DNA of 64,000 bases from Pseudomonadota bacterium (GTDB taxonomy: Bacteria > Bdellovibrionota > Bdellovibrionia > Bdellovibrionales > Bdellovibrionaceae): the NCBI GenBank assembly GCA_041178425.1, contig JBEGVH010000017.1, forward strand, positions 1 to 64,000. Direction: 5' to 3'. This document shows positions 60,501-64,000 of this stretch, one piece after another (position 1 is the first letter of the stretch; the number at the start of each line of letters is the position of its first letter). A program made the position numbers.

Positions 60501-63500
60501 TTCCGGCGGTGGTGGCAGATTTATTTGATCCCTTGGCATATTTAGCGATCATTTTCTCTGTATCAGAGTGTCCGCCATCGAAAACAGAGATCTTGCGCCA
60601 TTGACTGAAGGCCGATGAAGTCATGAGCGTTTTGTAGGTGGAATCAAAAATAGTTTTTGATCCGCTATCACCACCGCCACCCATCACTACCATGTGGTTT
60701 TCGGCAAAAGCAATGGAGCAAAGAGAATTCAAAAAAAAGGGGACCATTACCAATCTGAGCCGACGTGAGAATGCTAACATGCCTTCGATTTTCTATGAGT
60801 TTTTATTAGGAGAGCAGTCCTGAACGAAGGAGACTAGTCTTTGGTAGATGGTGTTTTCGCCCTTAAACAAATCTTATTGCCTCACGCAATGGGGTGAGCG
60901 GGGATTGGGGGAGTGAGGCTTTGATCGAAGGGCCGATAGTCCGAGCCGAAGGTGAGCTTCAACGCATGGTCTGAGAGGGCCTTGATAAGGTGGATGTTTT
61001 GGTTGGCGTCGGCCATGAGTTGCACAAACTGAAGGTCTGACCACTGGGGGGCGAGCGAGGGCACTTCCATGGGATCGAGTGCACCAAGAAGCCATTGTTT
61101 CAAGTAAGACCATGAGTGTGGGCAGTGGTAATAATCCAAATGAAAAGTGGGTGAGGCCCTCACGGAGGGAAGCTCGGAAAGTAGCGGCTCCTCGATGAGA
61201 AACGCTAATCGTTGATAGACTTCATCCATCGCCTTTTCACAAGCCTCTTTGAGGTGGGCACGGGCACCCCACCCCAGTAGTAGGGGTAAATCCGCCGCCC
61301 GCGGAAACCCAAAAATTCCCACCACAGCGAGGCCCTGTTTGAGATCGTTGTCGTCGCCAAAATGGTAAGCGGCAAGGTCGAATTTCTCTGCGAGTACTCC
61401 TGGCCAATGAATGATCGACGCAGGCAATCGCCGGGGAGCTTGTCGCCCGTACCAGAAGCGCAAGAATCGATCGCGTTCGAGCAATTCAAATCCAGCACTA
61501 TTAATGGCATTCGTTAAAGAGCAATGCAAGGCTACACCATTCGATTTAGAGTAAACCCAATTTGTTTCTATTGTGTTGGGCCCGGGGAAAACCTTCTCGC
61601 ACGCAACGGAGGAAACCTTTTTCCCTCCACGGTTGAGCAGAGGAAACTCAGCATGAGGCTCTGTGACACATCTTTGAAGGCGCTCCCATAGATGCGCTCG
61701 CTCCAATAATTCAAAGAATGCTCGTTCGGTTATTTTTAATCGAGCCTCTTTTGCAGCCGAAATTCCCGCAGAAGATTGGGGGTTCTCTAACCATGCGGCG
61801 GAGCCCGCGAGATGAGTGCGGTCTTCCTCCTCGAAACTGAGGCCTCTTCGGTGCAGTCTCCATTCACCGAAGGGCAGGCTGTCTTCGAGCACAGAGATTC
61901 GGCCCCATTCCGGGGGCAAGGGGTATGTCCTGAGTAGGGCCGCGAGGGCTTTGTTCATGCGCCCTCCGCGAGTTCATTCAGATGGTCATTGATCATTATG
62001 GCGGCTTTTTGAAGCGCATTCATAAATAGTAACTGTTTATCTTCGGTGTCGACCAGATCAACGATCACACCCAGATCATGAACCACGTGGTCTTTATCGA
62101 GCTCTTCGTGGAGAGCAATCACCGAGAGCGAGCTCCGGGGGTAACCCGCTTTTTCGAGGCTCTCTAAAAAGGGGGGAGCTGCGAGAACGGTAAAATACTC
62201 AACAAACGTAATGTAGGCCAGGTAAGACAAGGGGTGATTGGTGCTGAGGTCTCCCACCCAGGTCATGAGGAGTTGATTTGCTTGGGTGATGTCAGAGTCG
62301 AGTGCGATATCTTGAGCCGCTCCCAAAGCATCAAGATCATTCATGGCCCAAGCGTCATGGCCAATTTCTTCGTTGAATTTATCGGTCATAAAGGCGCTTA
62401 GCTCTGCCAGGCCTCGCACTTGTGCCACGTCGCGCGCCTTAGTTAAGTGAATAGGTGTATGGCGAACGGCATAGAGACAATTTTTAACATAGCGAACAAC
62501 GAGGTCTTTGGTGAGATGGCCATTTTGAGCAGTCAATACGAGTTTATTGTTCGTAAGTATATTTTTAGTGGCAGTTTCGATTTCGGTTTTTATTTTTTGA
62601 TCAAACATTTGAACCTCCTGGTAGTGTGTTTGAAAGGCGGGGAGCCACCACCTGTGTAGCTCCCCATTTTAATTAAAAGCTTAATTGAGCGAATTTCTTT
62701 TTCATGGCTTTCCTCCTTGTTTTTTGGTGATTGGAATCAATTCCCCCATTGGTGAATCCATTTGGGGGCGAGGCCCCGCACAGAATTGATCCAAAAAAAT
62801 TATTTCAGCGTTTGAGTTTAAAATCTTGGTAAAACGAATGAGTGCGCCCCATCGTTCCGAGAGGTTGAGTCCTGTTATATTGAACTGCAGTTTATTAAAA
62901 ACATGAACATTTACTAAATTGGCGGGAGACACGTCGGTCTCAACTCGGTCGATATGATGAGTGGCTAACACTGAAAGAAGATATTTTACAAATCCTTGAA
63001 TGCGACCTGCACTCGAAAAATCGCGTAGAATCATTCCATAGCGAAGGTAATAGGAGTGCCCATCCATAAGAGTGCCAATCACCAGCCCAATGGGCTGGCC
63101 CTGATGTGTTAACAGAAAGTGATCGGCTATTTTTTGGTAGTAACGGAGTTTGGCATCTGATGTACCTTCGGTGAAAAAACGGTTACCCCAGTATTCTAGC
63201 TGAAAAGTGCTTTTGTGGTGTTCGAGGATAAACTGCTGGGCTGTAGAGGCATCGATGATTTCGATCTGGTCAAAGGTTGTGAGTGAATAAGGAAAAACTT
63301 TGCTCCAATCGAGATCAAAAATAAACTCCGAAAGTGGGCGCTCGGAGTTTTGGTGGTTGGTCTCCTTAGTGGCCTCTGGCGCATTGTTCAAGGCTTCTGC
63401 CTTCATAAAAACCTCCTGTTGTTTTCAGGTTGAAGGCGGTGAAATCTGGTTGCGAGTTAATTTTTTTTAAACGCTTATTTTGTGTGCTTATAAAACTTTG

Positions 63501-64000
63501 GGCGAAAAATCAAAATTTGCAGAAAGGGTTGGATTCATTGGGGGAGTGAGCCCTTTGAGTAACAAAGGAATCTTTGAGCCTTGGCAGTGAGACGTGGGCG
63601 GAATCACTTTGAATCAATTGTGGTGATGGAAAGTTTTGAAATGCTGACTGAGAGTTCGACGATATTTAAGAGAACAGGCCTTACGTGGGTAGTTTCTGAT
63701 TGGTTTAATTAGCCACTGACCATTCTGAATTTCGGTGCTCTAATGAAAGGAGTCCATCGCCGGGGCATTGATTGCTATTTGTAGGTAAGGGGAGAAAGAA
63801 TAAGTGAAAAAACAAAACAGCATGATTCACTTTGTTGATAAAACGAACTATTTGGTGAACGGCTTATCGATGGTCACGTCGATTATTTTAATCCTTAAAC
63901 CCTCCCCGCTTGAGTTTTTAGTTTTTTCGTTTGTGGTCGATCCGATTGGCATGATGTTAGCCAATTTTATTTCGCCCCGATGGTATTTTCGTCGGTACCC

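Follow-up and report, generated by a model that had tools for sequence, protein, structure and literature searches.

Quorum sensing by peptides is textbook Gram-positive biology. In agr-type systems the precursor gene, the maturation enzymes, a multi-helix membrane kinase and a regulator are encoded together; the AgrB peptidase forms a thiolactone, and the regulator is of the LytTR type. Within the accessible parts of the literature on Bdellovibrio signaling, we found no self-made peptide signal.

On the side of peptide chemistry, clusters for linear azol(in)e peptides (LAP/TOMM) place a YcaO gene beside a precursor gene with a Cys/Ser/Thr target and carry no dedicated peptidase, according to the available sections of the sources (PMC7136475, PMC6395948). 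Bottromycin undergoes C-beta methylation, including that of Phe, and C-terminal oxidation (excerpts of PMC7136475; PMC8442711). Thiovarsolin combines a YcaO with the haem-oxygenase-like VarO, a proposed dehydrogenase, and is an N-acetylated short product of a cluster that, in the portion available, lacks a peptidase (PMC6511847); it is also the only RiPP example cited in the accessible part of a 2026 review of haem-oxygenase-like diiron oxidases (HDOs; PMC13108848).

Here we examine a Bdellovibrionota gene cassette that, judging from its sequence and conservation, we are narrowly inclined to regard as the source of a very small RiPP acting as a self-amplifying signal, agr-like in logic. We found no published description of this cluster; supplementary tables or paywalled papers might hold one.

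The YcaO cassette and its candidate precursor gene

The window analyzed comprises the first 64,000 nucleotides of a Bdellovibrionota contig. On its reverse strand lie genes for an accessory GNAT-fold acyltransferase (62702..63406; identified by ORF call and fold match of the predicted model), an HDO (61955..62608; PF14518, 30.1 bits against a cut-off of 28.9) and a stand-alone YcaO of 358 residues (60882..61958; PF02624, 57.1 bits). Divergent from them, on the forward strand, starts a membrane histidine kinase of 546 residues, which occupies 63804..64000 and ends at contig position 65444. The ORFs and coordinates bear out this arrangement as given by the first-pass annotation, and its statement that no E1, ThiF or TfuA partner is conserved also held in an all-against-all clustering of 333 neighboring ORFs from 22 loci, with Pfam applied to 58 selected proteins among them. 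The same clustering revealed no conserved peptidase (AgrB-like membrane peptidases included), exporter, immunity gene or FMN dehydrogenase; one flavodoxin-like gene occurs, in locus L136 only. No mobile copies were found in viral contigs or plasmids, and a sigma-70 promoter scan returned 0 sites. A search with the GNAT as query hit 26 of the 401 genomes of the phylum, its own among them, and a scan of named genomes with the GNAT alone as query gave one locus.

The cassette had been described as precursor-less, with no conserved small ORF. This does not stand: an ORF of 9-12 codons with a ribosome-binding site is present in 21 of the 22 loci collected first and in 34 of 47 later ones; at 9-12 residues it falls under ordinary ORF limits. 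Its copy in the window (62673..62705, reverse strand) has 10 codons and encodes MKKKFAQLSF; its start overlaps the GNAT stop (ATGA), and we read a GGAGG ribosome-binding site at 62712..62716 of the same strand, within the 3' end of the GNAT gene, with similar sites in relatives. The search was anchored by position, immediately 5' of the gene for the oxidase or the YcaO, and left the second-last residue free. It recovered the ORF in 55 of 69 related loci, and 13 of the misses are loci without upstream sequence. Excluded before counting were L056, L060 and L085 (duplicates of L035, L036 and L139), L140 (the other half of L034) and the outgroups L141 and L142; the close pairs L035/L036, L054/L064 and L066/L072 were retained, and since the loci are related, none of these counts are independent.

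The 55 loci follow the pattern M-(K/R)2-3-(F/Y)-A-x-x-(C/S/T)-x-stop and encode 51 distinct peptides. The second-last residue is Cys (25), Ser (16) or Thr (14) throughout, as against 16% in background ORFs; these three are the residues that YcaO enzymes cyclize. Ten different codons serve this position, both Ser codon families among them, and no other one-step neighbor was seen. Phe or Tyr stands at -6 in 55/55 and Ala at -5 in 51/55, the latter with all four codons in use; positions -3 and -4 are highly variable, and a single residue separates the C/S/T from the stop codon, leaving no follower peptide. A genome of another family (locus L046) encodes the identical peptide with synonymous codon changes, and L071 carries two tandem copies. 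In the window's genome, G000 (3.06 Mb), the strict pattern turns up 3 times, and none of 6 distant GNAT-only loci has it. DNA contigs from three runs of two other studies span the small ORF with no differing letters listed, which attests to its presence only. On these grounds the ORF very probably encodes the precursor of a new RiPP family.

It is barely credible that the ORF is instead a regulatory or coupling element, with the enzymes acting on a non-ribosomal substrate or on a protein. Such a role would suit its overlap with the GNAT stop and its position before a hairpin, as in attenuator ORFs, and it finds some support in genome G145, which has the YcaO, the kinase and the regulator and no such precursor, the single pattern match elsewhere in that genome lacking a stop codon. 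Non-RiPP roles of YcaO proteins are moreover described for archaea and Proteobacteria in the available part of PMC8442711. Against it stand the strict C/S/T over ten codons at one position with fixed spacing, the retention of the ORF where the GNAT is absent and its duplication in L071. The hairpin itself, a GC-rich stem of 10 pairs seen in folding (62639..62665, reverse strand), is likely an attenuator or mRNA stabilizer following the precursor gene. Taken whole, the 121-nt region does not stand out (z -0.85); the 70 nt 3' of the ORF reach z<=-2 in 42/55 loci against mononucleotide shuffles.

Clusters of this kind look precursor-less because the precursor lies below the 20-residue floor of RiPPER, as given in the available sections of PMC6511847, and this suggests that other "orphan" YcaO clusters merit re-examination. 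Gene content also shows that the GNAT is not the core gene: present in 46 of the 55 peptide loci, it is absent from five loci with upstream sequence in view and replaced by an unrelated RimJ-type GNAT in one. By this comparison of loci, the predicted precursor is conserved in its amino acids and forms the core of the cassette with the stand-alone YcaO, the GNAT is optional, and the HDO and a B12 radical SAM enzyme are alternative tailoring enzymes.

Predicted maturation of the peptide

Residues E83, E86, G141, E158, E161 and R162 of the YcaO are invariant in 20/20 aligned sequences, and its nearest solved relatives are TruD, MJ1094, MusD, LynD and McbD. All 120 homologs end in H-P-(I/V)-x, the last residue being Pro in 26 and Ala in 73, and only those 26 have the complete C-terminal PxP that marks azoline-forming YcaOs, a motif described in the accessible part of PMC7136475. 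The protein is single-domain, scores 45 for TIGR03604 (cut-off 219), and each locus has one YcaO of this clade. We infer that it is the cyclodehydratase of the second-last precursor residue, which would probably become an azoline: with ATP, the enzyme would close the Cys, Ser or Thr onto the preceding carbonyl to give one thiazoline or (methyl)oxazoline.

The same precursor and signaling role could go with other chemistry, in which the azoline is an intermediate followed by a backbone cut, as reportedly in MusD, or an amidine ring forms, yielding a dipeptide-sized or cyclic product. We consider this very unlikely. It would accommodate the lack of a cluster peptidase and of TldD in G000, MusD being among the nearest solved YcaOs, the incomplete PxP and the variability at -3 and -4; yet Cys is the commonest residue at -2 (25/55) and thiazolines are relatively stable, and Ala at -5 together with a GNAT fits N-acetylation of a longer product.

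The HDO carries a 3-His/3-carboxylate ligand set (E81, H84, E137, H167, D171, H174), invariant in 16/16 and aligned with CADD; this motif is described in the available part of PMC13108848. Profile matches are to 3DDE (2e-20), CADD and MboA, and weakly to UndA. HDO substrates coordinate iron via their carboxylate, according to the portion of PMC13185094 at hand. The oxidase is present in 42 loci and the B12 radical SAM enzyme in 11, the two together in 0, and the radical SAM loci spread over at least six branches of the YcaO tree. The last precursor residue is aromatic in 11/11 radical SAM loci vs 17/42 HDO loci. All NCBIfam scores of the radical SAM enzymes are below cut-off, the best being ApyD (122 of 750). 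Taken together, this tips our judgment slightly towards the last precursor residue as the target of both enzymes. The diiron site of the HDO would bind the C-terminal carboxylate and oxidize that residue, by desaturation or oxidative decarboxylation; the radical SAM enzyme would instead modify the terminal aromatic residue, in the simplest case by beta-methylation.

The window GNAT stays under the Pfam cut-off (15.2 vs 20.7 bits) and its relatives pass; its predicted model (pLDDT 82) has RimL, PaiA and RimI as top fold matches. Q-G-x-G, which we take to be the acetyl-CoA-binding loop motif of GNATs, is the consensus of a 22-sequence alignment, degenerate in the window copy, and as a rough pattern fits 58/149 representatives. 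The family is large, with 248 clusters at 50% identity (E<=1e-30). A host peptidase would cut off the basic M-K-K-K-F leader, and the GNAT would then acetylate the new N-terminal Ala of the trimmed peptide, giving roughly an acetylated pentapeptide. TldD was considered as leader peptidase and was not found in G000, which is rated 100% complete.

A membrane kinase, an upstream box and a possible feedback loop

The kinase has six long helices, a HAMP-like linker, His328 and an ATPase domain. Its sensor part, a membrane-embedded helical bundle with the conserved polar residues D46, K113 and E195, has no Pfam match and no clear PDB match, and Foldseek against the PDB returned none at E<=0.001, which speaks neither for a new nor for a different fold. 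The best fold match (VIA Z 8.1, rmsd 5.7, 208 aligned) is a designed protein, and a language-model lead points to MASE10/HAMP clusters. The kinase is single-copy in 32/401 genomes: it is found in 28/28 Bdellovibrionota genomes with this YcaO and 4/373 others, in a count where cassette-linked kinases match by construction because the sensor profile was built from them. It usually adjoins an OmpR-type regulator (Response_reg + Trans_reg_C); in G000 the gene of the cognate type is unlinked to the cassette. The link to the kinase was understated in the first-pass annotation; it is near-universal among Bdellovibrionota loci.

Upstream of the operon lies a near-palindromic box (63453..63474, reverse strand; consensus GTTAAG-N4-CTTAAC), often repeated at 10-11 bp steps, which is a candidate response-regulator site. 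De novo motif discovery in 30 upstream regions recovered it (log-likelihood 126 vs 49-56 in three shuffles), and a matrix built without the window site ranks the window operon first of 2967 G000 upstream regions. Its median score is 15.9 bits in 30 loci of the Bdellovibrionota type, against 7.9 or less for 16 loci from the clade that lacks this kinase. Six loci (L030, L032, L041, L082, L135 and L049) also have the box ahead of their kinase operon, and several carry it upstream of the kinase, radical SAM or regulator gene; ahead of the cassette operon, L044, L135 and L137 show no good match. In G000, three other OmpR-type genes are preceded by further high-scoring boxes, and the unlinked cognate-type regulator gene lacks a strong one (6.9 bits), so the box may belong to another regulator. 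The proposal of a signal biosynthetic unit beside a sensor kinase gains from the kinase co-occurrence and the rank of the box, losing its precursor-less part.

With some reserve, we favor the product as the predicted ligand of the kinase in a feedback loop. It would exit the cytoplasm and bind the membrane-embedded sensor, and an OmpR-type regulator would bind the box and raise synthesis. Alternatively, the RiPP could be an effector or metabolite, for example directed at prey or competitors or metal-binding, which the two-component system switches on by another cue. Co-occurrence and box equally fit regulation by the kinase, three genomes have kinase and regulator without a cassette nearby, and peptide-sensor covariation was not detected (Mantel r 0.01, p 0.46, 26 loci; low power at 25% identity). 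We nevertheless judge this alternative unlikely: no exporter or immunity gene is conserved, the box precedes the kinase operon in six loci too, and an unrelated signaling protein adjoins the cassette in a second clade, a pairing more in keeping with a ligand than with a weapon.

In that clade of high-GC, probably myxobacterial relatives, the same cassette is paired with a Ser/Thr-kinase hybrid histidine kinase with kinase, AAA, GAF, histidine-kinase and receiver domains, a composition that suggests a cytoplasmic protein. Together with the lack of an export gene and the alternation of an oxygen-using oxidase with a radical SAM enzyme, this could point to a signal that acts inside the producing cell, as a timer or as a readout of oxygen, B12 or the state of translation, and not between cells. 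Such a role appears decidedly unlikely, as the Bdellovibrionota sensor is membrane-embedded with conserved polar residues, receptor-only genomes fit listening to others, and the two core positions that vary give the appearance of dialects (51 distinct peptides).

Returning to a signal between cells, we tentatively speculate, rating the full picture somewhat short of probable, that a YcaO-matured peptide of about 10 residues could be an autoinducer common to two phyla of Gram-negative predators. Its receptor would be a new six-helix sensor in Bdellovibrionota and, in myxobacteria, an unrelated hybrid kinase; two variable residues and repeated HDO/radical SAM swaps would create dialects, and receptor-only genomes would eavesdrop. 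If our main reading is right, predatory bacteria gain a native signal, receptor and operator, each amenable to study with three or four small genes.

Comparison with known systems

If our reading is true, the locus also gives a partner-free YcaO with a minimal substrate, a natural exchange of HDO and radical SAM, and what is likely a second case in which an HDO acts on a ribosomal peptide. As in LAP/TOMM clusters, the YcaO adjoins a precursor gene with a Cys/Ser/Thr target (here 55/55). The usual, not universal, E1/ThiF partner is not among the conserved neighbors; unlike LAP/TOMM, the cassette has no flavin dehydrogenase or exporter, the precursor is only 9-12 residues long with one fixed site, and a dedicated predicted receptor travels with it.

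Bottromycin and streptamidine share the stand-alone YcaO with no partner, and bottromycin also the B12 radical SAM enzymes seen in 11/55 loci. Unlike either, the cassette has one YcaO, no follower peptide, no P450 or amidohydrolase and a much shorter precursor; it is not actinobacterial, and there is no sign of an amidine. Thiovarsolin is alike in pairing a YcaO with a haem-oxygenase-like oxidase and no cluster peptidase, and in its N-acetylated short product, which here is predicted. Unlike thiovarsolin, our locus has a single non-repeating micro-precursor and an oxidase that can be swapped for a B12 radical SAM enzyme, and since it has no TfuA, which thiovarsolin has, no thioamide is expected.

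In its logic the locus resembles agr, with precursor, maturation enzymes, membrane kinase and regulator together (the regulator being unlinked in the window), variable cores, and a candidate feedback box before the synthesis and kinase genes. Unlike agr, it resides in Gram-negative hosts, relies on YcaO/HDO chemistry and not AgrB, uses an OmpR-type and not a LytTR regulator, has a sensor domain without family match, and in the high-GC clade is paired with a candidate receptor of another type.

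Layout of the cassette and its probable short precursor

The ORFs for the GNAT (62702-63406), the haem-oxygenase-like diiron oxidase (HDO; 61955-62608) and the stand-alone YcaO (60882-61958) form a single minus-strand run. Pfam supports the oxidase and the YcaO, as the first-pass annotation had stated; the GNAT of the window falls below the cut-off, and its identity comes instead from relatives and a clear fold. The divergent sensor kinase placed beside this run was likewise recovered, as a 546-aa ORF that starts at 63804 and stops 75 bases short of the contig end. Behind the YcaO lies a 429-aa ORF (59491-60780, minus) with no family above cut-off and absent from the other loci. 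Elsewhere in the window, at 49563-53381 (plus), an ORF of 1272 aa encodes what looks like a signal peptide.

The same annotation considered the cassette precursor-less, with no conserved small ORF, a view that the sequence does not support. Inspection of the 93 bases that separate the GNAT from the oxidase reveals a GGAGG site, an ATG that overlaps the stop codon of the GNAT, the ten codons MKKKFAQLSF (62673-62705, minus) and a hairpin, and relatives carry an ORF of the same kind 3' of the GNAT. A strict pattern built from these ORFs matches 21 of 22 GNAT+YcaO loci and none of six distant GNAT-only loci; in the 3.06-Mb genome of the window it occurs in three places, the target among them. Six distant stand-alone GNAT relatives (L021, L023-L026, L028) have no peptide ORF after the GNAT and no YcaO within 1.5 kb.

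Additional loci (43 from metagenomes, plus seven genomes) were retrieved by YcaO rather than by peptide and searched at the anchored position for a ribosome-binding site and 7-14 codons opening with a basic stretch and then F or Y; GTG starts, and Ile or Leu within the basic stretch, were admitted later, and the C-terminus was left unconstrained. Of 69 loci without duplicates, 55 yielded a peptide; for the loci fetched later the figure is 34 of 47. In thirteen of the misses no more than 237 bases precede the first enzyme gene; among these, L070 shows a truncated peptide end. The true miss is L049 (genome G145), which has the most divergent YcaO and where pattern searches found no precursor of the usual form; this deviant locus (L049:7665-14145) has its YcaO convergent with the GNAT and an extra hybrid kinase in addition to the normal kinase and regulator.

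Counted from the C-terminus of the 55 peptides, position -6 is Phe (46) or Tyr (9), -5 is Ala (51), Ser (2) or Gly (2), -4 and -3 vary, and -1 is mostly hydrophobic. Position -2, within the end left free in the search, is Cys (25), Ser (16) or Thr (14), the residues converted to azolines by YcaO enzymes (PMC7136475). Ten kinds of codon encode it, with Ser drawn from both codon families, and in none of the 55 loci is it Arg, Gly, Ala, Asn or Pro, the single-change neighbours; the loci are related, so that these counts are not independent trials, and mean YcaO identity is only 30%. Four locus pairs encode an identical peptide with silent-site differences, and L071 carries two precursor genes in tandem.

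Candidate modifying enzymes

The YcaO is single-domain, and its invariant glutamates and S-N-G segment align with those of TruD and MJ1094. Its C-terminus reads H-P-(I/V)-x in all 120 homologues, of which only 26 end in Pro. A Pro at that position matters for catalysis in McbD, where some product nevertheless remained in Pro-to-Gly mutants and deletion still gave thiazoles (PMC6395948). Azoline formation is therefore likely but not certain.

The oxidase carries the 3-His/3-carboxylate set that PMC13108848 describes as the HDO motif. In characterised HDOs the substrate is bound to iron by its carboxylate, which in MboA is the C-terminus of a tripeptide (PMC13185094); by analogy, this points to the last peptide residue as the target.

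HDO is encoded in 42 of the 55 peptide loci and a B12 radical SAM enzyme, upstream, in 11 others; no locus shows the two together, and a pair of short contigs shows neither. At least 5 kb upstream is visible in only 22 of these 42, so that the remaining HDO loci could contain a radical SAM gene. On the YcaO tree the radical SAM loci occupy six branches or more. Their last residue is aromatic in 11 of 11 cases, versus 17 of 42 for HDO loci (Fisher p 0.0003, overstated since kin are counted). The two enzymes may perform one oxidation, with and without oxygen respectively, a possibility for which AcsF and BchE, a diiron and a B12 radical SAM enzyme that do this, offer a precedent. The top family scores of the radical SAM enzyme belong to RiPP methyltransferase models, all below cut-off, and the last residue would on our reading be either oxidised or methylated. 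Two loci have a Rieske oxygenase gene first in the operon (L045:4237-5247, with the box described below upstream of it, and L052:4428-5501), possibly a further tailoring enzyme. Sporadic neighbours are 2-oxoglutarate-Fe(II) oxygenases (two loci), an O-methyltransferase and a flavodoxin-like gene (L034:7845-8813, L038:9639-10568, L037:3935-4999, L136:11444-12025).

The GNAT is present in 46 of the 55 peptide loci; three of the nine others are cut short, five lack it despite visible upstream sequence, and in L139 its position is taken by a RimJ-type GNAT that is unrelated. Because its nearest folds are N-alpha-acetyltransferases such as RimL, a role in acetylating the Ala at -5 of the trimmed peptide would fit. 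At L043:2156-5096 two GNAT copies flank a radical SAM gene, the copy adjoining the peptide being shorter and degenerate. Two genomes of one genus encode similar 95-111 aa proteins of no Pfam family upstream of the GNAT (L031:7728-8015, L034:8836-9171), the L031 gene with its own box.

Sensor kinase, regulator and upstream box

Among 333 ORFs around 22 loci, only GNAT, YcaO, HDO, radical SAM and two-component proteins form groups found in at least five loci; no peptidase or exporter is conserved there. The YcaO clade occurs in 28 genomes of a single 401-genome sample of the phylum (members at least 146 bits, best other genome 85), and the sensor part of the kinase is present once in each of 32, including all 28. 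Kinase and cassette adjoin in 26; G291 and G174 have these genes at the ends of contigs. Of the four genomes with the kinase but not this YcaO, three encode kinase and regulator and show no cassette in the fetched stretch, and the contig of the fourth is 1.5 kb long. These three pairs (L152, L153, L154) are possible orphan receptors; L153 and L154 adjoin a small helix-turn-helix-like gene.

Commonly, kinase and then regulator stand behind the YcaO, convergent with it; the window and L029 are the exception, with the kinase upstream and divergent. The closest regulator in the genome of the window, of the cognate type, is split over the starts of contigs C42 and C30, unlinked to the cassette; the end of C17 overlaps that of C35 by 111 bases. 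The sensor has no Pfam match, and its model (pLDDT 90.7) displays six long helices, short loops, a HAMP-like linker and conserved D46, K113 and E195; the atlas lead is to MASE10/HAMP clusters, 40% of whose members carry MASE10. Distances among YcaOs correlate with those among sensors (r 0.71), evidence of joint inheritance and no more; distances among peptides show no correlation with those among sensors (r 0.01).

A de novo motif search across 30 upstream regions yielded a box, GTTAAG-N4-CTTAAC, often with extra half-sites at 10-11 base steps. With the window's own site left out of the matrix, the region upstream of its GNAT, with the box at 63453..63474 (minus), ranks first of 2967 in the genome; in leave-one-out scoring the box comes top within the locus in 17 of 30 cases, and many of the competing sites lie before the kinase, radical SAM gene, regulator or added first gene. 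No good site precedes the operon in L044, L135 or L137. Since three of the other top sites in the genome of the window (C20:53933, C20:99479, C39:1885, C19:60392) precede other OmpR-type genes, the box may act for more than one regulator, and these copies point to either a regulatory cascade or a box type used in common.

The GNAT-peptide-HDO-YcaO run also exists in a second clade of loci, mostly of 60-72% GC, where nine-residue peptides are common; homologues of one such YcaO have Polyangiaceae, Labilithrix and Deltaproteobacteria as source names. In 16 of these loci the box reaches at most 7.9 bits, a value confounded by GC content and kinship. In at least 14 the gene that follows encodes a Ser/Thr kinase at its start, and of three such proteins scanned all have kinase, AAA and histidine-kinase ATPase domains, two GAF and two a receiver. 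That two unrelated signalling proteins adjoin one cassette type argues that the product is a signal.

Candidate signalling loop and related systems

Altogether, the cassette product is very probably a RiPP. We propose that a ribosomal precursor is made, that one azoline would then form at the second-last residue and the last residue be oxidised or methylated, and that trimming by some host peptidase and optional N-acetylation would give a product sensed by the kinase, with feedback through the box. This whole chain we hold to be slightly better than an even bet, its weak points being a peptidase and exporter absent from the clusters and the lack of peptide-sensor covariation. No description of the cluster was found in the literature covered, which includes few subscription journals.

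The cassette falls outside agr, the linear azol(in)e peptides, the thioamitides and the bottromycins alike. With agr it would share the logic of a loop, built here from YcaO chemistry. The nearest enzyme pairing is that of thiovarsolin (PMC6511847, PMC8120280).
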